From assembly GCF_018350175.1 (NCBI RefSeq), contig NC_058370.1:90644001-90708000 (forward strand): DNA of 64,000 nt, given 5' to 3'. Both the position numbers and the translations under genes were made by a program. The first letter of the stretch is position 1, and every line of letters starts with the position of its first letter. The notes under the pieces were generated by a model that was not told the origin of the DNA, made no database searches, and worked only from the letters and a program-made list of their open reading frames with translations. This DNA comes from Felis catus (taxonomy: Eukaryota). Below, one piece after another: positions 27,307-47,753 of this stretch.

Positions 27307-30313
<3,007 letters not shown>

Positions 30314-30941
30314 GTGGGTCAGCAGGACTCTGAGGTTCCTGCTCTGATTTCCACCTGGCTTTCCTGGCCTAGGCTCTGAGGGTACCTGGACAGAGGATTA
30401 AATGAACCAGTGGGGGGCAGGTCCCTCCAACCACCAGCACCAATCCCTGGGCTCTGAGGAATCACACAAATGCTTTTTATATAAAATAAAATTATACCTA
30501 GCATCATGTTATAGTCAAAAATAAGGGCGGGGCGGGGGGTACTGATCTTTTTCCCCATGAAGAGGCTAGAGGTAAAGCTGTATTCCCCCTGAACGGAGGG
30601 GAGATACTGGAGCTGACCATTCTGACCTCCCTATTTGAGAAAATGAGCTCCTGCTGTCTGTTGTTCTGGGCAGTCAATCAGGTGCTGCTCTTTGTAGTGT
30701 GCTTCACTCAGTGCTGGGCCTGGGAGCAAAAATTCCCCATGCTTGGCCACAGATCCGGCAGCTGGCATAGGAAGGAGGGCAATAACTTCATTTTGATGTT
30801 TCCACATCCATAGCACACACTGGATGAGCATGGCTGGCCTGCTGACATCAGGGGTTTCTTGGTAAGCTCCTGAGGTAATGGCAGCCTCAGACCCCTGCCA
30901 TTAGGGGCCAGTGGTGGTTTTCAGAGGAGGGTGGCAGCACC

Positions 30942-33900
30942 TTAGATGACCTGGTTGCTGGTCTGGCCAGGGTAGCGCTCAAACTTCCTGTTGGCCTCTT
31001 CACTGAAGGCATCACCTGCAAGGTGAATGGGCAGTTTAGGCAGGGAAACGGACCCATTGTGGGGAAGGGTGAGTAGAAGTGGAGAGGCTGGGAGATCCAG
31101 AGGAGGGTGGGAAGATATAGAACCGACTTGGGGAGAAGAGAATGAAGGCCTTTCCTTCCCATCCCCCAGTCTCTTTGGGCTGCTCTTCCCATCAAATACC
31201 AATGTGGCAGTTGTGCACCCAGATGCGATGTCCATCATATTTGCAGTTACACTTCATTGCGTTGTTGGTGAAGTCACTTTCTGCTACTTCAAAATTGGGG
31301 TTGATGACCACCTGTGAGTGGGAGAAAGTCAATTTGACCAAATCTTCAAATCTTTAACAAACACTCCTCCCACTTGCCAGCTGGATCTCAGGCCCCAGGC
31401 ACCTGCAGAATGTAGTTTCCTGGCTTCACATCTGTGATGTCAATCCACTGGCAGTCGATGTCATGCCGGTAAAGATCCCAGCAACCCACGGTAATGCCCT
31501 GCTCTCCAAAGTTAGCACACTCATACCTCTTGGAGACATCTGAGAGGGATTGGCATATGTCAGTGTGAGGCAAGGCTGTGGGATGGAGATACCGGAGTCT
31601 GGTCTAGGCCCAACTCACCCTCCTGACATTCGGTGTCTTCTAGACAGAAACTAGCTTTGTGGCCCTCAGCCACCTTGGTGCCATTGGGGGTCAGGATATC
31701 ATAGTGAGTGAAGATGTCCATACTGTGGTAATGCCTGTGGGGACAAGGGAACCCCTGTTTTCGTCCCTGCCCCCAGCAGGCTTGCCCCATCTCCAGTGAC
31801 CTTGCCCTTCTACTTGACCCTCTCACCCATGACACTCGTGCCACACCCAGGAGTGGCGCCCGGCCTTGGGCCTGAAGTCAGCTCGTCCCAGGTTGTGGAT
31901 CTGGGAGGAGAATCGGAGCAGACGCCTGTGGCCATAAGGCCAGTTGGCTGAGCGGGCTGAGCGGGCCAGGCAGTTCTCTTCTGCAGCACAGTACAGCATG
32001 TGTAGGGGCCGGTCCTCGATGTAGGCGGTCTCCTGCACCAGTGCTGAGTGCAGCAGCAGGTCTGATGCAGCTGCACATGGAAGGGAGCAGAGTGTTGGAA
32101 GTCACTGCTGAGGGGTGGAGACAGATGGGGGTGCTTCTGCTCCCCCTGTAGAGTGTGAGAGGCTGCTTCTTCACAGGGAAGGAGCACCCCTCCAGATTAT
32201 GGCTCTCTTTTTCCCTCAAAGGGGGTGGCCCAGAGCTTCCCTTCCCTGGCTTGCATCACCTTATCCTTCACTCACTCTCGGAACAGATGACTCCAGCAGT
32301 GAAGCGGGTTCCTGTTCTCTTGCAGGCAATGTGGGTGCCATGATGAGCACACTGGTCCAGGGACAGCTCAGACCCTGTGCAGCGCACTCCACTCATCACC
32401 ACCTCTGTTATATTCCCTGAGTCCCAGTACCAGGTCTCCTGGGGACATATGTTGGTGTTTCTGTGAGACCCCCACCATCCAGCCTCTTGGTCCAAGGGAC
32501 TCATTTCCATAGTCCTCTGCCCCAAACACAGGCTTTGGAGGCAATCGTGTTGGTTTCCCTTTCCTTCCCACTCACCTGCAGGCCATGGTTGGCATAGCCC
32601 AGTCCAAGTTGCCTACAGGCCACCATGGCCTCCAGTGTCCCCCAGTCATCCCCACAGATGAGCCCCCAGCGAAGGGACCCAGGTCCCCCTATTTGCACCT
32701 CCACTCGCCCCTCGTGTTGGCTGCGGCCCCCACTGAGTCGGATCTGTAGTGACACAATGGAAGTTCCGGGTAAGCTTTTGGGGAGGGGTAGTGGGAGCCT
32801 ATAACAGGTATGTGGCTGAACGGTGATTCAGAGGCACATAAAGGCTAGCAAGTGGGGGCATCAGGTGGGAGTTGTAGGATGGCAGGGGCCTGGGACAGTG
32901 GGCTGGGAAGCTGTCAGGCTGCAGATCATGACCAGGACTGGATAGGATGCGAGATTTCTGGACTAAATCGGGAAGATAACTGACCTTGGTCTCTACCCCA
33001 GTGTAGGGCAGGTTGCATCGGACTCCAGCATCTTGGCTATGGGAACAGTCTTCGGCTGTGATGTTCTTGTGGGGGCACCTCCAGAGGGAGGGTTCCTGTC
33101 CAGAGCATCGAACCTCACTTAAGTGGATGGCACCCATGCCTAGGGTCAGAGGTCAAAGATCAGGAGGTTATAACTGGACCTTCATTGTCTGCCCAGGGGT
33201 CTCCTTCCCAAGGACCATACACCACCCCCCGGGAGAGTGTGTACCTCCTCCTTCCCTCTTCCTCCCATTTTCATCCCCCTCACCCTGCCCCATGCGGGCA
33301 CCACTCAGAGCCTCTCGAGCACTCCCGAAGCCCAGCTCCCGACACACCACGCTGGCTGCCTGCAGGTCCCACTTGCGGTCACAGATTGTGCCCCATGTGC
33401 TGGCCTTCAGGACTTCTACCCGGCCCTCTCCAGGGTGGGCCCCACCCTTTAGACGCACTCGGGTCTATAGAGGAGAGAGATGTGCCCAAAGCAGTGAATG
33501 GAAACATCAGCACAGAGAGGGCTAAGTAGACCTGGGTGATAAAGGAGATTCTGGTGGGAGGGAGGGGGTGGTCTCAGGTCTGTGGCCCACCCCCTGAGAG
33601 GTTCCTCTCTGTCCTCAAAGGTCAGGGCTGTGCTAAGTCAGGGGCTGGCTAGGCTAAGGGGTTCTCCACCTGGGGTGGGGAAGGTTATAGTCACTGTCTC
33701 ACACACCTCCCCCTGAGGCTTCGACTGTTGTTGCTTCCTCTGGCCACTGGATGCTGCGTAGAGAGGGCCTGGCACACAGCTCACCACCGCAGGGGCCCCC
33801 CCAGGGCACCTGGTGGTGTCATTGGCACGATAGAACTCCAAGGAGCAGAGGGAGAGGTGGGCCTCCGTGCCCACGCACGCCACCCCATGCAGACCAAAGG

Positions 33901-36236
33901 AGTGTTGCTGCCGCTGGGCCAGCAGCCTGGGGGGACAGGAGTGGGGTGCAGTAGGGTAAAACAATGCTCCTGCCTCTTTGCCGACAACCCTCCTCCCCTC
34001 CATGCCTCCACCATCCCCCAACCTTTCATGACCATTTTATCCCTCTTCTTCCCTTCTTTTCTGCTGTTTCCCTCCTTAGAGACAAAGGGAATGGCAAGTT
34101 TCCAGGCTGAAAGAGCCCAGATTACCCAGATAGGAGGGTCCTTGGGGACCTGCAGCCAAAGACCACTATGGGTAGACAGCTAGTCTTGACTTGCCTGACA
34201 GAAACCTTGCTCCAAATGGCTTCAGGCTGCTGGCCCTAACGAAGGCTGAGGCTGAGGCTGCTGTGCAAAGAGAGTGAGAAGCCAGGACTGCCCAGCTGGA
34301 AGAGATGGGCAGGAGGGAGTAGCTGACACAAACAGGAAGCCTGAAGAACCAGCGTGAGCACATCCTTCTGTTATGCTGAGGCTGAAATAACTGAATGAGT
34401 CAGGATGCAAAGCACTGAGTAAGTCTTGGGTCTAAATGGCTTCTCAGAGGCTAGAGGGTCTTCCAGGCCAGAATATGATGGGTAGTTATGAGAAGATTAT
34501 ACCAGAAGGTGGACATAGGGAAGGACTGGGGCTGGCACATGTGGGAATGAAGATGTACAAATGCAAGACAGACAAAAGTTAGTCCACGTGACCAGAGAAG
34601 GAGAGAATATGCACAACAGAATGGTAGCGGTCTCTCCAGACCTGAGCTGGACTTTAATGAGGTAGTCCATGCTTCTGCAATTTAAACATAACAGAAAGAA
34701 TGTTCTGTAGCCACCCAAGCATGGAAATGGGACTAAACTAGAGATGTTAAACCTTGGAAACCCTTCAGAGAGATGCCTTGAGAGAAGGAGGGGCCTGGTG
34801 TAGGTGTATTGACACCAACGGAGTAAGAGATGGCAGTGAGGCGCGTGGTGAGAGCAGTGCCCAGAGAGGAGGGTTGCTATTGGTGGTATGGGCCTGTGAG
34901 GCTGGCCTGGCAATGAACTATTTCAGTAATGTGCCCATCACTTGAAGTCAGAGGGAGGAAGGTTATGACGACTCAAAGTCATTGCCTAGGAAGATGCAGA
35001 GAGGAGGAAACATAAGCACAACAGACAAGCCTGGAGACTTTACAGAATACCTTTGGAAGCTCAGGATCAGTGGATTCTGAAGCTCAAATAGATCAGGTAC
35101 TCTCCCAAAGTCCTGTTTTGCTGAAAATAAAAGTCAAAGAGGCCACCACAGGAAAAAGATCTTGCTCTTCTAAACTCCCTCCTCCCATTTCCCCACAAGG
35201 AACACAGTAAAAACAGCAGTGTGCCCTTGAATTTGGCGTTCAGGGAAGGCCAGAGCATGGCTATGTTGGGCACAGATGACCCTTAGCTAGAAGGTACTAC
35301 AAGAGTACTCTCAAATTCCAAGCTCCTCTGAAGCCACCACAAGGAGGAGCTGGAGAAGGAGGGCCACCAGGGAACCACTGGGTGATCCCAGAATGTGCAG
35401 AAGAGAGGAGGGGACAGAAGAAAGGGATGAATTCTCTGTGTCTCAGCCACTGCTTAAGAAGTTATCAGGGAGAATTCTCATGTGCAAATGGCCTTTGGAA
35501 GCCTAGTGAGAGGTAATCAGTGGCGTTGGAAGCTTTCCACTCCCTTCGGTTCTGAAGGACCCCACAAGGAAAATCATGGAACTGGGAGCCTAATTGTGTC
35601 AACTGGGCCAGAGACACAGGGGTTATAATCTGAACCCATCCCTGGCAAAGTTTCCAGAGGGGATCCTGAGTCTTACCTCCAAGCTGGTAGCACCTATTTT
35701 TAAAAAATAAAGTTAAGATGGGAACATTGATCCCTTAGGCAAACTTAACTTCTTGGGGGAGAGGCAAGGATGGCATCTGAAGGAGAAAGTGCTAGAGTAT
35801 CTGCTAGAATTCACTGGGAGAAGATAAACAAGCCTGTGGAACAGGAGTTCAGTGGATGAACTTCTATCAAGACTTTCAAAAATCCTGTGATAAGCATAAT
35901 TCCCCAGAAACGAGGATAAGGCCCAGCATCACTTTATGTTTCAGTGACTCATCTGGAAGGTGGTTTCTAATAGCTACTGCCACCTCTCCACCTCTAGGTG
36001 GGGGCCTCTTAGACCCCTTCCTGACCACAGCTCAATTGCCCTGACTCATCATCACTCTGCACTCTCCCTCTCCTCACACCCAGCCTGAACTTCATTTACC
36101 TCTTGATTGATCCCCTGCCCACTCGGGGTTTGGGTTTGACTTTAAGCTTGGTGATTGGTCTGAAAAAAGGAGAAAGAAGTTAGTGGAGGTAGTGGTTAGG
36201 TACGTGGCCCAGGAAAGGTAGAGGGTTTTGTTTTCT

Positions 36237-36267
<31 letters not shown>

Positions 36268-38441
36268 CCTGTTTCCGGGAAGGACACTTTATGCAGAGCG
36301 TGGGAAGGAGTAAAGTGAAGGGGGCCAGGTATTCCACACACTGACGGCTGCACACCACTGAACTCTACTTTAGGAACTCCTGTTGCACTCTGAATTCAAC
36401 CACAGTGATGAAAAATCTAGTCAGTCCAGGGGGTGACGGGAGAAGGGGATACAAGGTAAAAGGAGGAGAGAGAATGGGAATGTGGGTGAACTGAATTAAG
36501 GGGGGTAGGAAGCATGCAGGTGGTTGAGGCTGGAGTCCAAGCTATTTGGGGGAAGCATAAAGATGCGAAGGCTTCTCCTCAGCCATTCCTACATTATTTC
36601 CTCTTTGTACACCCTAAGGTCAAAGCTTGCCCATCCCCATGCCTGCCTCCCCTTCCCTTCCCTACCTCCCCTGGAATGGCCATTGTGCAGTTACATCCCT
36701 AATTCATCAGCTTGGGTTCCGGGATGGACATGGATAGGCTGCCTTCCATCCATCCACCTCCTGGGGCCTCGGGGGCGAGCAGGAGGTCCCGGGGCTCTTG
36801 CCCCATTACCTTCCAAGGGGCTTGGGGCGTCGGGCCGAGGCTTTGGCCGCTCGCTTCCTCAACTTTCTGTGAGGATAAGACAATAGCAGAGTCAAAATCA
36901 GTCTAGAACCAAGTGGGAAAGGCTGGTGCAGCCAGGGGCAAACTTCTTTTCCAACAGGAAAATTGGAAAGTCAACAAGATGTTATAACATCAGATACTCC
37001 CGAGGCTTTACCCTTCACAGCTGTCTGGCCTCACGCGCACATAACCACACTGATGAACAGTAGTGAAATTCGTGGACTCAGGCTGATAGAGCCCCTGTAC
37101 CAGCACGCACAGAAATTACACTAGGGTAGTGAGTGATGGGGACTAGGGGCAATATCAGGGTTGATCTAAACCTCAGGGGAGGTCTATGGGGAAGTGTATA
37201 AGTAGAAGGATGTTAGGATTGTTAAGATCGCCAGACTGACCCAGCAAGGAGAGAGAACTGGTCTGGTCATAGGGAGGCTGACTGTCTTTTATTCTTGGAT
37301 GCTCTTTGACTTCTGGCATTTCCATGTCTGAGGCCAGTGAATTGGGACCAAGCACCAAGGCTGGATGTCCAAGGACAGTAACTTGATTTGACTGGGGAGC
37401 ATGAAGCCAGGCGGCTTAGGATGACAGCATCCTTCCTGCCCAAATTAAATCCCATATGCTTTAGTCATTTACAAACCAAGCTCAGCTCCCAAACTTACGT
37501 CCAGAGAAATAAGTTCTAAAACTTTATTTCTTTTTAATTGGCCTAAATATTTGACCTATTTTATTTTTCAAGAGGTTGGCTTAAGTCTAAGGTCTGGAAA
37601 CTAGGTCTGTTTCTCCTCTCATTCTCCTTTTGATTTCAAAGACTTTTTTTGCCCCTCTTCGTTCTGTCCAACTATGTATAGATGAATGCAGGTTTTGTCT
37701 GTCTGTTCTTCTAAGTTTATGAGACTCCCTGTTATCATCTTAGTTATTCTTTCTTTAAACACGTTCTTACTCTTGTTTCTCCTGAGGAGTCATATCTGGA
37801 CATAGTATACTGTGTGCAGATGCACTGGATGTTAATAAACAGATCTGAAACAGCTCTGAAGTTGCTTGGTATTTCCTGCCCTGGCTTCTTCCTGAGGATG
37901 GATTTAGTTGGTCTTTTTGCCAAAATATCCACTGTGTCCAACATTCCTTGGAAAGAGTGCACAATAAGTCTCAGGTCCCTTTCCTGAGACATTACTAAGA
38001 GTTTAGAACCTTTCATCATGTAAGTATAGGGTGAAACTTTTTCTCCAAATGTCTTTTTCTCAGATATGTCTAAAATGAAATGTATTTTATGTTTTCTTTC
38101 AAGATTACCTTGATCCTCCAACTAGTACTCAGAAAAATGTAGTATTATCTAGGGATGCCTGGGTGGCTCAGTTAAGTGTCAAACTCCTGATTTTGGATTA
38201 GGTTATGATCCCATGGTTCGTGGGATCAAGTCCCATGCTGTCAGCATGGAGTCTGCTTGAGATTTTCTCTCTCCCAATCTCTCTCTCTCTGCCCCTCCTC
38301 CCCTTGCATACATGCTTTCATGCTCTCCCTCTTTCTCTCTCTTAAAATACATAAGCATAAAAAATGTAGTATTATCTAGATCTTGGAGGTACCTCTTCTC
38401 TATTTATAAGGTTTTATATTATACATCATATGGTACATATG

Positions 38442-41819: not shown

Positions 41820-44800
41820 GTTAATGTTTATTATTTTTGAAAGAGAGAGAGAATGAACAGGGGAGGAGCAGAGAGACAGGGAGACAGAATCAGAAGCAGG
41901 CTCCAGGCTCTGAGCTGTCAGCACAGAGCCCAACACAGGGCTCGAACTCACAGACGGTGAGATCATGACCTGAGCTGAGGTCAGACGCTTAACCGACTGA
42001 GCCACCCAGGTGCCCTCCTCACAGTCTATTCTTAAAGCAGCCAAAATAATACCTTAAAAATGGAAGTCAGATGTCACGCCTCTGTTCAAAGCCTCATCTC
42101 CCACAGAGTATACACCAGTCCTCCCAAATGGCCCTATGCAATCAGGCTTCCTATTCTTTCCCTATCCCCTCTTATATCACCTTTCCTATCATTTTCTCTC
42201 TTGTTCTCTCAGCTGCAGCCCCAGTGGCCTCCAGGAGCATGACTCTTCTCCCCTCCCTCCTCCTGCCCCCTAGGATCTTTTCATTTATCATTCCTCTTCC
42301 TGTCAACACTTGTCTAGATTTCTACAGATTGTGCCCTCACCTCCCTTAAATCTTTTCCGAAATGATGCCTTTTCAAAGAGGCCTTCTCTGATGGCTCTTT
42401 TTAAAATTGCAATCTCACTTTTACTTCCTAACTCCTTCCCTGCTTTATTTTTATTCATTACACTCTTTGCCATCCTTGCATTTTAAAATTTTACTATTTT
42501 CTGATTCTTCCCTAGTCCATGAGATCAGGGATTTTTGTCTGTTTTGTTTACTGTCGAATCCCTAGTGTCTACAACAGTAGACAATATATAAATACTGACC
42601 AAATGAATCTCTTCACCTTTGTTCATGCTATCCTCTTCACTTGAAATCCCTGCTTTTTAAATTGTATAAATCTTTCAGAACCTGATGTTGGGGTCAGGCA
42701 AAGTAAAGAAAAAGCACAGAGAAAGAAGTATAGCTCCAAGACAGATAATAGCAAAGGAGCACAGCACACAGCTGTTTTAAAACAGTTTGAGTCTCCAGAC
42801 CAGATAAAGTATATTCCTTGGGGCTGAAAGAACTTTCAGGTGTGTCTGAGAGCCAAGGCAACGAAAATCTGAGCAAGTATGGAAAAGACTAGAGGTTGGA
42901 CAATGTATTTACTTTCAAAAAGAAGAAAAAGGATTCCTTAATCTAAAGAATAATATTTAAAAATAAGTTATTAAATGGAAAGTTTGTGAACAGTGGGGAA
43001 AAAATATGGAGATGCTTAGAGACCCAGAAGGATTTCAGTAAAAGTTAGCTCAAACCACCATGATTTCCTTTTTTGATAAGCTTTCTAAATTGGGAGGCTG
43101 GAAAATGGCCATGAACATAATATATCTAGATTTTAAGGAAGACTAACAAAATCTCCCACGATTTCATTATAGATAAAATGGTGAAATGCTGGCTACATCA
43201 TTGTAGTGTTCAGTTTGTTCCCAATTAGTGGGAAAAAAACATTTCACAAGTAATGAGTAAAGACTTGATGAGTAAGGAAGGGTTAGACTTTGGTTTTGAA
43301 CATTTCAATAGTTTTAAGTCACTCTGATGAAGCCAGAAGACCTAGCTATCCTGTATATCTTCCAGAGGAGGCTGGGAGGGATGATAAATGGAAAATAATG
43401 TCAAGATTCAAGATAATCTCATGGGTTCACTGTGGCTTTTAAGTGGTTTTTAAATGATGTATCAAACTAACTTAATAGAATAAACTCAACATAGATTTAG
43501 GTTCAAATAGGCTTTTCTATTAGTATCAAGGATAAAGGAAGATCTGAATTGGTTTTAGATGATTACTAGTTCAATATGAACAGTGGGATGTTTCCTCAAC
43601 AGAAAGGCATACAAAATCTGGGCATGCTCTACTCAAAGTTGAGCATTTCTACTGTACCCTGCTCTAATCAGACGATATCTGACGTTGTGTGCCCAGTGGA
43701 AGCTGACCTAGATGTCAAGAGGTCTTTCTGCAAAACTCAACTTAGGAAGAGCTGAGAGGGAAAAAAAAAAAGTATTTCAGCCTGCAAAATAGAGTGACTG
43801 TAAAGATTTCCAAATTCCTCTAAACGACCACATACGATGCTCCAGGGTTGCGAGGCACGGTAAGCACAGAGCAGTTTACCAGTGTGATTCGTTACCCTGG
43901 TAGCCAGTGCGTACCCCAGGGCTCCAGGGCAGTTGGAGAGGGTCGGGCGCCTCGGCCAAAGGATATTCTGGAAGACTTGCCTAGGAGTGCCAGGGGCTCC
44001 CGCGCTCGCAGACGCGCCTAGAGGATGGCCGCGACCGAGGGGCAGGCCTCACCTCTCCAGGAGCCCCCCCCAACCCTCAAGGTTCGGCCCTCTGGCGGGG
44101 ACTCCCGCGCCCAGCCCGGCGCTGGACACACCCAAGCGCCGCCTCCGCAGGGCGCGGCCGCGCGCTCCTTGAACTCGGACGTCGGGCCCCGGAGCCGCGC
44201 CCGCGCCGTAACCTTACCCGCCCGCGACACAGCCGGCCGCTGGGCGTGGCCTCGCCAGGCTCGGCGCGCGCCCCGGGGAGCCGGGACTCTGCCTGCCAAC
44301 CGAGGGCGTCACGGGTGCGGACGCGCGGCCGGCCGCCACTCGCCCCGCCCCGGTTGCGGACCTCAGAGAGCCGGAGCCTCGCTTGCCCCACTTCGGACCC
44401 GCCCTGAGGAGCCCTTCATAGTTCCACAAGGTTTCTCAACTCTCCAGTTTCGAAAGGGCCTCCATAGTTCCCCACTGTTCCTGAGCCCCGGACCCTCTCA
44501 AAGGTCAAGACACCGCTTCCTAGCGAGCACCCCTCCATCCCAGTCTGTTTCCCCCAGCGCCCACGCCCCTTCACCTGTAGAAGGCCGTGTTAACCCTCTT
44601 TTCGCTAGGGAAGCCCAGCATCCCGCAGACCACGTGGCTGTTATGGGCGCTCCAGCCTTTGTCACACACTTGCGACCAGCCGTCGGGAAGCCTGACTTCG
44701 ACCAGTCCCTCGGTCACTGGCAGAGGCCGCCTGCCCCTCCCCACGGCGGGCCGAAGTCGCACTTCTTCCACTTGCAGGTGCTGTTCTACCTGGGGAGGGG

Positions 44801-45444: not shown

Positions 45445-47753
45445 TACGAACTGCAGACCTCAATGACATTAGAATCCGAGAAGCCGGGGAGGCGCTGGTC
45501 CTTGCAGATGACTCCAGCATCCTCATCATGGGTACAGTCACTGTTCCCCCAGCCCCGGGAGGCACACTCGGTCACACTCTGCTCAGTCCCACTGCAGCTC
45601 AGGTTGTCCAGCCAGATGCGGCCTGTGGAGGGAGAGATGAGGGAATAGACAGGCTTGTGGAGGCAGGATGGAGGAGAAGGGTAAGTGGTGAGGATTTGGG
45701 GGAGAGTGACCATGAAGGCCTCACACCTGGCCTGATGATCCCGTTTTTCTGGTTAGATAATGGGATGTGAAAGAGGAGACCCTGGAAGGGAATAGGAAAG
45801 GGAGCACAGGATTGATGGAGGGTCAGTTGTGATGGGGGGGGGGGATACTCAAGAATTTGGTAGGGTGAATAAAAAACCAAGAGTCAACACTGAAATTCTC
45901 ATCAGTCCTGACCTATTCAATGATAGCTACAATTAATCAAGTATGTGTTGTGTGTTAGGCACTCTGCCATGTATGTATATACATGATTATCCTTAGAACA
46001 GAGCTGCCAGAGGTGTTATCACCATTTTACATAAAGAAATTGGGGTGACCACACAGCCAATACATGGGGGCTTAAGGGTTTGAGCCATTTGTGAGACTTG
46101 GAAATCTAAGATCCTTTCCTCTTAGCTTCACTTTCTCCCATGCGTCTTCCCGGTCTGTGTTACTGCATTGCCCCCTTGTTTTCCTCTCTGCCTGGACCAT
46201 CCTGAAATGAGTATTGCTGACTTCTCAGAGTTGGGATGGATTCAATTCCCCCCAGAGGCCATGGGATTCCACCCAATGTGACTGTCTGTCCCAACCAATG
46301 GCAGGGACCTATCATGCATACCCTGACAGGACTTTCCCAGCTTCTGCTGGGATACCTACTTCCTGCCCCACCAGGCCACTGAACCATCACAAAGTCCTTG
46401 TGACTCTCTGTGACTATCCCCCAAGATCTGATTCAGTCCTTCGATGCCATCCAGGCAGCTAAATGACTGTCAGATAAATGACTGTCCTCATATTTGGATA
46501 CAACCTTCATGCAATTGCTACCCAAAGCTTTTAGTTTTCATACCAAACATCCCTGGTTTCTTCAGCTATTCCCTCTTGAAACTTGGCTTCCAGTCTTTCA
46601 CATCTGGGCAGCTCTCCTCTGAAAGTATATCCATTTTCTACTCTCTCTTTTTTTTAAAAGTAGGCTCCATGCCCAGCATGGAGCCCAACACAGGGCTTGA
46701 ACTCACGACCCTGAGAGCAAGACCTGAGCTGAGATTAAGAGTTGGGCACTTGACCAACTGAGCCACCCAAGAGCCCCTCTACTGTCACTCTTTAAATGTG
46801 GCAACTACAAGTGATGCTTTATTCCAGAAGTGGTCCAGCCAGTAGGAAGTGGAGGATTAGCTGCAGACTGCACCAGCTTCTGTCCATCAGTCCCATTGTG
46901 GGCTCCTACAATGTAAGCATCCTCAGGTCTCAGAATTCCTCCTAAGCGCCTACTAGCCACACTCATTCTTGTCTTAGAGTTTATACTTGTTCTTAGTTCC
47001 AGCTTGTTGGTTTCAGCTCTTGCCTATAATCTGATTTGGTCAGCTGCGGTATCTGTGATCCTTTCTGGCTTTGGGATATCCAGACATCATTTATCTGTTC
47101 TCAGCTTTCCATCAAACCAACTGTACTTTAACTGTACAGGGCTCACCTGTATCAGGGCTGTCCTTGCATGTAGCAAGGTAGAATCATACTTCTGCAGAAA
47201 AAAAGGAACTTAGAGATCATGTAGTCATTTTGCACCTAGGGCCTCTGAAGTTCAGAGAAGGCACTGACCAGCTTAAGGTCACACAGTTCTGGGAAGCAAC
47301 TGTGTTAATTGGTTTGTCAGCCATGGGTTTACTTGACACTGGCTGTTTTTGGTGTCCTGGGTCCCTGTGCCTGTGCCATCCTGGTGTTTCCTCTCCCTGC
47401 ATTTAGACAATACCTAGGCCATGCATGGAGCATTGCTTACCTGTTCCAGGGCCATATTTGGCACTGTGGGTCCAGCCCGTGGCCTCTGTGAAGCCCAGCT
47501 CTCGGCAGAGGACGTGGGCAGCCTGAAGCGTGAAGTCGTCATCGCAGATGGTGCCCCACTCGCCAGCTCTCTGTATCTCCACTCGGCCCTCAAAGGGCTT
47601 CCTGGGGAAGCCGGCCAGCCGGAACCGCAGCCCCTGGCTCCCAGCCCTCTTCTCGGGGGCCGTGGATGGGGATGGAGATCCCAGGCATGAGCTGCACAGC
47701 AGACAGAGCAGCAGCCCCCATGGGCTCCGCTGCCAGATACTGACAGGTCGCAT
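30942..47753 (-). CDS. LOXL3: Lysyl oxidase-like 3 (4 SRCR + LOX domain), 753 aa
   Basis: Coding exons 47441-47753, 45459-45622, 44575-44789, 33707-33926, 33284-33464, 32985-33139, 32576-32743, 32276-32438, 31827-32070, 31619-31734, 31403-31539, 31200-31311, 30942-31015 (2262 nt). Copper motif [14 protein letters not shown] Lys in [11 protein letters not shown], Tyr in [12 protein letters not shown]. Confidence 0.98.
36100..36159 (-). CDS. LOXL3: Candidate LOXL3 cassette exon B (60 nt, [21 protein letters not shown])
   Basis: Branch point cactaac + ttctttctccttttttcag acceptor, donor GAG|gtaaat, phase 2-2, open frame. Confidence 0.65.
36810..36866 (-). CDS. LOXL3: Candidate LOXL3 cassette exon A (57 nt, [20 protein letters not shown])
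   Basis: Acceptor tcttatcctcacag, donor AAG|gtaatg, phase 2-2 matching flanking exons, open frame, locally CpG-retaining. Confidence 0.75.
38151..38362 (+). mobile_element. Can-SINE, diverged
   Basis: gggatgcctgggtggctcagtt head; TSD aaaaatgtagtattatctag. Confidence 0.9.
38447..38488. repeat. (CA)n(TA)n microsatellite
   Basis: Directly visible. Confidence 0.95.
39221..39432 (-). mobile_element. Can-SINE
   Basis: T-tail, (GA)n, ends ...cccgggcgcccc. Confidence 0.9.
40650..40869 (-). mobile_element. SINEC_Fc, young copy
   Basis: Near-consensus body; TSD atcaggtaaactttaaaaa. Confidence 0.95.
41000..42620 (+). mobile_element. LINE-2 remnant interrupted by a SINE
   Basis: L2-type text (caaaaccttggggtgaaccttaatc, ccatcagcaaatcctgtcgcctctacct, cctcctaactaatttctctgcc); approximate. 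Confidence 0.6.
41777..42016 (-). mobile_element. Can-SINE with (TA)n-expanded tail
   Basis: TSD ctcacagtctattctt; (TA)n at 41778-41816. Confidence 0.92.
42800..43770 (+). mobile_element. CR1/L3 LINE remnant
   Basis: CR1 RT-like text ttccttttttgataag...aacataatatatctagattttaagg (IYLDF) and ctgtaccctgctctaatcagac; highly decayed. Confidence 0.55.
43900..44420. promoter_or_regulatory. Intragenic CpG island just 3' of LOXL3 coding exon 3
   Basis: Dense CpG/GC boxes inside an otherwise CpG-poor intron; minus-strand donor CGG|gtaagg at 44218/44217. Confidence 0.7.
45393..45445. repeat. (GT)n microsatellite next to LOXL3 splice donor
   Basis: Directly visible, ~13 nt from the donor at 45458. Confidence 0.95.
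46646..46776 (-). mobile_element. Short Can-SINE
   Basis: taggctccatgcccagcatggagcccaacacagggcttgaactc...gagccacccaagagcccc. Confidence 0.8.

Follow-up and report, generated by a model that had tools for sequence, protein, structure and literature searches.

The stretch analyzed here, a window of 64,000 nucleotides (nt) from Felis catus (NCBI RefSeq assembly GCF_018350175.1, contig NC_058370.1, positions 90,644,001 to 90,708,000 of the forward strand), harbors LOXL3 on its minus strand, with the start codon at position 47753. A phase-2 intron of 10,648 nt (44574-33927) splits the region encoding the SRCR2 domain. A preliminary description of the window had placed within this intron an array of three symmetric cassette exons, A, B and C, which could be combined in frame to insert basic residues into SRCR2 or, through a stop codon in C, switch the transcript off. 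Judged by sequence comparison, exons A and B are real and old, and they are probably functional.

Coordinates and phases of all three exons proved correct, and each length is divisible by three (Table 1). Exon A encodes 19 residues, nine of them lysine or arginine, and starts with the motif LRKRAA; exon B encodes 20 residues with eight lysines or arginines and a K-x-K-x-K pattern. Neither contains aspartate or glutamate, and together they amount to 39 residues, 17 of which are basic. Exon C has an in-frame TAG, so that only A and B contribute residues. Scored with an approximate splice-site matrix, acceptor and donor reach 10.1 and 7.3 bits for A and 12.8 and 8.2 bits for B; these are the only two symmetric candidates in the intron above 7.5/6.5 bits, and a looser cut-off of 7.5/3.0 bits yields six. 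Block-shuffled introns contained on average 0.02 open candidates at the level of A and none of 100 contained two, whereas 45 of 100 gave at least one candidate at the level of C (9.4/6.1 bits); the thresholds were taken from exons A, B and C themselves, which makes these chance figures optimistic for all three. The splice sites of A and B are stronger than expected by chance and those of C are not. A and B have AG..GT ends, and the donor of C is GC, not GT. At the DNA level, A and B cannot be recognized as duplicates of one another.

Table 1. Features of the LOXL3 intron within SRCR2 and its flanking exons, in the order of transcription (positions are those of the window).
Feature	Position	Strand	Remarks
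LOXL3 exon 4, first half of SRCR2	44575..44789	-	phase-2 donor at 44575; residues 159-231 of ferret isoform P0057 align here
Alternative acceptor upstream of A	36867..36902	-	would lengthen A by 36 nt; 13/14 residues match here
Cassette exon A	36810..36866	-	57 nt, phase 2-2, AG..GT ends, open frame
RBFOX-type hexamer between A and B (presumed)	36513..36518	-	lead only; 3 in whole intron
30-nt A-run between A and B	36238..36267	-	from comparison of the window with itself
Branch point-like or QKI-type hexamer (presumed)	36179..36184	-	~20 nt upstream of B acceptor; lead only
Cassette exon B	36100..36159	-	60 nt, phase 2-2, AG..GT ends, open frame
Cryptic exon region	35051..35120	-	deer and porpoise models, different frames; no conserved cassette
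Wider cryptic-exon zone around C	34126..34295	-	porpoise and whale models splice parts (P0016, P0441, P0053, P0055)
Candidate exon C	34195..34260	-	66 nt, GC donor, in-frame TAG at 34238-34236; unsupported as member
LOXL3 exon 5 acceptor	33900..33951	-	exon start 33926; second half of SRCR2

The stretch from 34195 to 36866 had also been described as free of short interspersed nuclear elements (SINEs). None of the three SINE copies in the upstream part of the intron matches it, which bears out the description for these copies, with old MIR and L2 repeats outside the comparison; the A-run is the sole match that 34101-37000 shares with the rest of the window. No convincing enrichment of splicing-factor motifs was detected around A and B, and the two hexamers in Table 1, presumed to be of the RBFOX and the branch-point or QKI type, are leads only. 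A search of sequencing runs returned 20 runs with nearly the whole A-B stretch, intron included, and four raw-read RNA runs were found by species label; neither set is evidence of splicing. The alternative acceptor upstream of A is used in dog and Phyllostomus models (P0039, P0040, P0082); in the window, the 36-nt extension would add a hydrophobic stretch of 12 residues, and a similar stretch occurs in the fallow deer model P0440.

Exon C could be a third regulated member of the array, i.e., a poison exon that directs the transcript to nonsense-mediated decay. Its acceptor is good, its GC donor resembles the consensus and its TAG lies far upstream of the last exon junction; the zone around it is spliced in porpoise and whale models, two rodent models (P0399, P0400) start at exon 5, and such an exon would leave no protein record. 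However, the splice scores are those of chance, the sites and frames chosen in other species differ, and a comparison of the reading frame of C with 520 proteins gave no convincing match (best E = 2.2). Read at the protein level, porpoise models enter ~35 nt upstream of C, in a different frame, and exit ~70 nt downstream, and whale models take up a piece of 45 nt directly following C. A porpoise-type exon (34295-34126) would measure 170 nt in the cat and contain a stop in the porpoise frame. The final 1.2 kb of the intron is exonised patchily among other mammals, and the region around C looks like a zone of cryptic sites. We consider a role of C as poison exon quite unlikely, and the three-exon array with its off-switch is not supported. 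Several rodent models or open reading frames (P0399, P0400, P0019, P0089, P0445, P0447) begin with a methionine at the start of exon 5, implying an out-of-frame element or an internal start upstream of this exon.

Mammalian LOXL3 isoforms were surveyed in 92 records readable across the SRCR2 junction, which were gathered from protein searches and cluster listings (15 of 401 and 15 of 510 members listed for the two largest clusters) and from which sequences lacking either anchor had been dropped. Counted as records, rather than as species or expression levels, 62 carry neither exon, seven carry A, nine carry B and 14 carry both, i.e., A and/or B is present in 30 of the 92. Carriers are found in dog, ferret, five bat genera, pangolin, whales, deer, sheep, two rodents, elephants and elephant shrew, and among marsupials in dunnart, wallaby, opossum, koala and Tasmanian devil. 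With all four states present in public models, the proposed combinatorial in-frame basic module is upheld for A and B, but not for C. Exon A had been suspected to be part of annotated isoforms, which is right, and B is annotated as well; public predicted models with an insert include XP_012906630.1 (ferret X1), XP_036986717.2 (bat X1), XP_074130331.1 (dunnart X1) and, from a fish, XP_013128362.1 (tilapia X1).

Both exons are well conserved among these records. Exons A and B of the window agree letter for letter with the dog model P0039. The peptide of exon A is identical in dog, ferret, elephant, a bat and hamster models, and ten consecutive residues are invariant across seven mammalian versions, marsupials included. 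Versions of exon B occur in bats, whales, ruminants, afrotherians and marsupials, with the peptide of the window also in dog model P0039, and three alternating lysines and one glycine are invariant across 12 versions. The lengths are constant among mammals at 19 residues for A and 20 for B. In elephants (P0018, P0044, P0086), three acidic residues are new in B and several basic ones are gone, with A unchanged, suggesting that B may be under relaxed or altered selection. In scans of metagenome contigs, none of 597 pattern matches encodes a relative of part of exon 5, and a scan of fish contigs gave four loci, of which the one examined, L008, stops short of the junction.

A basic insert at the same SRCR2 junction is also present in a sockeye loxl3b model, and a search with the sockeye region (best 120 of 339 matches listed) was among those used for fish. 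Among the 193 teleost loxl3b records, an insert is absent from 31 and measures 22-23 residues in 26, 38-45 in 132 and 57 in four; the query carried the insert, so that the 162 insert-bearing records provide no estimate of frequency. All three states (0, 22 and 41 residues) occur in tilapia and again in yellowtail, and a form with only the second part was not seen among the 193 records. Three JGI/Logan proteins (P0126, P0129, P0134; 793-799 residues) carry both fish parts on contigs of 3.65-3.68 kb, a length that points to spliced transcripts. In the 57-residue inserts of Atlantic salmon (P0106, P0451, P0453, P0458), the second basic part occurs twice in tandem, forming a three-part array. The possibility that the two lengths arise from an alternative donor inside a single fish exon was discarded, since the lysine codon after the junction in Archocentrus (P0136/P0137 versus P0202) cannot begin with GT or GC. 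The loxl3a records examined have a shorter loop without such an insert.

When tested against composition-preserving shuffles, exon A resembled the first parts of the fish inserts above the shuffles for 15 of 28 distinct parts (p = 0.0025) and exon B the second parts, likewise for 15 of 28 (p = 0.013), and the two crossed comparisons gave no match (p = 0.38 and 0.22). Because site, order and motif are the same, the inserts of mammals and teleosts are more likely of common origin than convergent. The common ancestor of the two groups lived about 430 million years ago. By its occurrence in teleost loxl3b, the module is, as far as these comparisons reach, older than the preliminary description supposed.

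The paralogues LOXL2 and LOXL4 of the cat genome have an intron at the same position. In LOXL2, this intron of 6.5 kb contains two unremarkable candidates above 7.5/5.5 bits, neither of them basic or similar to A or B. LOXL4 carries a 39-nt phase 2-2 exon in the homologous intron (locus L007, 7118-7080, minus strand), with five basic residues among the 14 read across it. Like A and B, it is a small symmetric exon at the same SRCR2 junction, but it is single, shorter and unrelated-looking. The one sturgeon LOXL4-like record, P0271, lacks the 13 residues of this mini-exon, which may be optional or lineage-specific.

With A and B included, SRCR2 carries a net charge of +22 instead of +5 and has an isoelectric point (pI) of 11.23 instead of 9.15 (mink P0060, skipped, compared with ferret P0057, with both exons). 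The fish domain goes from +5 in the skipped salmon form to +14 and +20 in tuna forms with one and both parts, respectively. None of the solved LOXL structures covers SRCR2, with 5ZE3 beginning at query residue 343, and we therefore refer to predicted models of moderate confidence. The model without insert has a short helix (227-235), directly followed by the strand that runs to the third cysteine. With A and B, the helix spans 227-242 and residues 241-275 are of low confidence, and the flanking strands and other elements of the domain are kept. The insert is thus predicted to split a short surface helix, its first ~10 residues prolonging the helix and the rest forming a flexible loop on an otherwise preserved fold. 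Both models have an N-terminal hydrophobic helix (11-21), and full-length isoforms retain the signal peptide; LOXL3 is described as secreted (excerpts of PMC6678131). All seven mammalian versions of A contain an exact match to the heparin-binding pattern X-B-B-B-X-X-B-X, as defined in part of PMC4561558.

These features lead us to a reading which we hold with about as much confidence as doubt: as frame-preserving LOXL3 cassettes, A and B would turn SRCR2 into a polyanion-binding patch, by which heparan sulfate or acidic matrix holds the enzyme after secretion. Inclusion, presumably limited to certain tissues or stages, would give an exposed loop of this secreted matrix enzyme a dense positive charge. 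The four states (none, A, B, and A plus B) might then act as graded steps of retention where LOXL3 is secreted, and the grade of retention could determine the site of collagen, elastin or fibronectin cross-linking. We rank this reading first because exposed, dense positive charge is the simplest property common to A and B and to mammals and fish, and because of the precedents of LOXL2, PDGF-A and collagen XI. Among the functions proposed in the preliminary description, binding to matrix or heparan is the best fit, with a convertase site plausible and a nuclear localization signal (NLS) least likely.

Several observations weigh against a retention patch. Most carriers of A or B are predicted isoform models, a class of models guided by RNA sequencing (RNA-seq), and all eight Logan-only mammalian proteins across the junction skip both exons. 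No insert was found in 18 primate LOXL3 records, nor in ten records from sauropsids, frog and sturgeon, which are too few to show absence; together, these negatives leave a phylogenetic gap. A marsupial-seeded search likewise gave no sauropsid insert among 44 candidates. A search of 50% representatives returned mostly multi-SRCR proteins, with no insert in the LOXL3-like ones examined. The similarity between B and the second fish part is weak, most teleosts match the heparin-binding pattern inexactly, with an acidic residue at the seventh place, and both structure models have a mean predicted local distance difference test (pLDDT) score of only 64-66. Moreover, LRKRAA is kept more strictly than a charge patch alone would require.

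As all eight Logan-only proteins and all 18 primate records skip the exons, skipping is probably the mammalian default. The mammalian exons could be viewed as rarely included leftovers that do little at present, or the inserts of mammals and fish as having arisen separately in a loop that tolerates insertions. The skipping, the gap in primates, sauropsids, frog and sturgeon, and the unrelated-looking exon of LOXL4 in the same intron all agree with this view, and basic low-complexity peptides easily resemble one another. Against it stand ten residues of A invariant from marsupials to eutherians, lengths fixed at 19 and 20 residues, strong splice sites and an order-specific similarity to fish that survives composition-preserving shuffles. 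Both versions appear improbable to us.

The strict motif L-[RK]-K-R-small-small is conserved beyond the needs of charge, and its spacing from the junction varies; together, these traits point to a recognition site. In a rival reading, exon A would install a proprotein-convertase site, and a cut after the KR pair within SRCR2 would yield a nicked, disulfide-linked two-chain enzyme with an altered surface but no released fragment, B being a basic tail that aids surface capture. The halves would stay linked, since two cysteines (201 and 214) precede and four (287, 297, 310 and 320) follow the cut, provided that the usual disulfide pairing of type-A SRCR domains holds. A dibasic pair followed by two small residues occurs in 118 of 119 fish inserts and in 21 of 21 mammalian A records among the matches listed, P6 is basic in 101 of the 118 fish motifs, and the motif lies 3-6 residues from the junction (101 at 5, 14 at 6), as expected of a linear motif rather than a packing helix. 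The canonical furin site, R-X-K/R-R, has arginine at P4; here, in contrast, P4 is leucine in 115 of 118 fish motifs, with arginine in two, and leucine in mammals. Furthermore, the motif is predicted to be helical (helix 227-242, at moderate confidence and beside a disordered loop), and the nine records of B-only isoforms lack it. A precedent exists in LOXL2, which PACE4 cuts just after SRCR2 (parts of PMC8699698 and PMC9180022). On balance, cleavage as the main role of A is a tentative possibility.

Retention and cleavage are compatible, and both can be true. Once the enzyme is tethered, cleavage behind the KR pair in A could weaken its hold, and a combined scheme would make the exons a splice switch in place since the bony-vertebrate ancestor, in which the insert docks on heparan sulfate and the cut frees the enzyme or changes its partners. 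We regard this scheme as speculative and rather unlikely on present sequence evidence. If true, splicing would set where matrix is cross-linked, LOXL3-linked Stickler syndrome, myopia and cleft palate would have unscreened targets in the intronic exons A and B, and, with the mini-exon of LOXL4, the SRCR2 junction would represent a family-wide tuning site.

Finally, the inserts might have an intracellular role, either targeting LOXL3 to the nucleus or nucleolus or serving its nuclear pool as a nucleic-acid-binding tail. A bipartite NLS consists of two basic residues, a spacer of ten and at least three basic residues among the next five, and eutherian A fits this pattern by eye (three of five). 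The pattern fails in marsupial and teleost versions (two of five), though, and the signal peptide of full-length isoforms also speaks against such a role. Nuclear LOXL3 has been reported (sections of PMC6678131 and PMC12619944), and the latter, a 2025 review, calls its NLS unsettled; a further point against the inserts in this role is the bipartite NLS already proposed at residues 293-311 in excerpts of PMC6678131. An intracellular function of the inserts thus seems to us decidedly unlikely.

Beyond the intron's cassettes, a DOK1-like gene starts at about 50140 on the plus strand, head to head with LOXL3. A CpG island at 44000-44500 lies in LOXL3 intron 4, right after exon 4 and ~5.7 kb upstream of the start codon of this DOK1-like gene; it is possibly an internal or alternative promoter. 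A protease-like gene on the plus strand, presumably HTRA2, has its 3′ end at 30000-30420, where it abuts the LOXL3 3′ untranslated region.

A and B are known to annotation pipelines, where the predicted LOXL3 models that contain them carry no functional note, but they are apparently undescribed in the papers searched. In the full-text literature, no paper describing them was found, with subscription papers and databases such as VastDB outside the scope of the search, and the files examined from three splicing-atlas supplements (PMC12644568, PMC8187152, PMC13534637) have no LOXL3 row. In the sections examined, PMC5704677 treats only the LOXL3 promoter. The passages on isoforms in two reviews (PMC6678131, PMC12619944) give a reference complementary DNA (cDNA) of 753 residues and 14 exons and only the variants LOXL3-sv1 and LOXL3-sv2, which delete exons, and no insertion. 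These variants remodel SRCR2 as A and B do, but by deletion rather than insertion. Work based on the reference cDNA would miss A and B, and exon panels designed from it would leave them out. The role of the LOXL SRCR domains is described as largely elusive in part of PMC8699698; according to part of PMC12619944, LOXL3 has been reported from the matrix, the cytoplasm, the nucleus and mitochondria, and its targeting signal is not settled. By quadrupling the net charge of SRCR2, the two natural cassettes provide four ready-made isoforms for probing the role of these domains.

Similar systems are the heparin-binding exons of VEGF-A and the y exon of agrin. In the long isoform of PDGF-A, an alternatively spliced basic segment serves as a matrix retention motif (excerpt of PMC3072383). 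Like A and B, this is an optional lysine- and arginine-rich segment spliced into a secreted protein; it sits at the C-terminus of a growth factor, whereas in LOXL3, a cross-linking enzyme, two independent cassettes lie within a folded SRCR domain held by disulfide bonds, and retention of LOXL3 is putative. In collagen XI alpha-1, the variable region is likewise an alternatively spliced, highly basic segment of a matrix protein, which binds heparan sulfate (part of PMC4561558), and both COL11A1 and LOXL3 cause Stickler-type disease (part of PMC6678131). In contrast to LOXL3, it belongs to a structural collagen propeptide, and no sequence relation is claimed. A parallel in family and domain is LOXL2, whose basic SRCR2 (pI about 9) has been proposed to confer affinity for matrix and cell surface, and as the basis of the higher matrix affinity of the full-length enzyme (excerpt of PMC8699698). 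LOXL2 is also cut by a convertase, but PACE4 cleaves it constitutively and at a site between SRCR2 and SRCR3, whereas a cut in LOXL3 would depend on inclusion of exon A and fall within SRCR2 itself.

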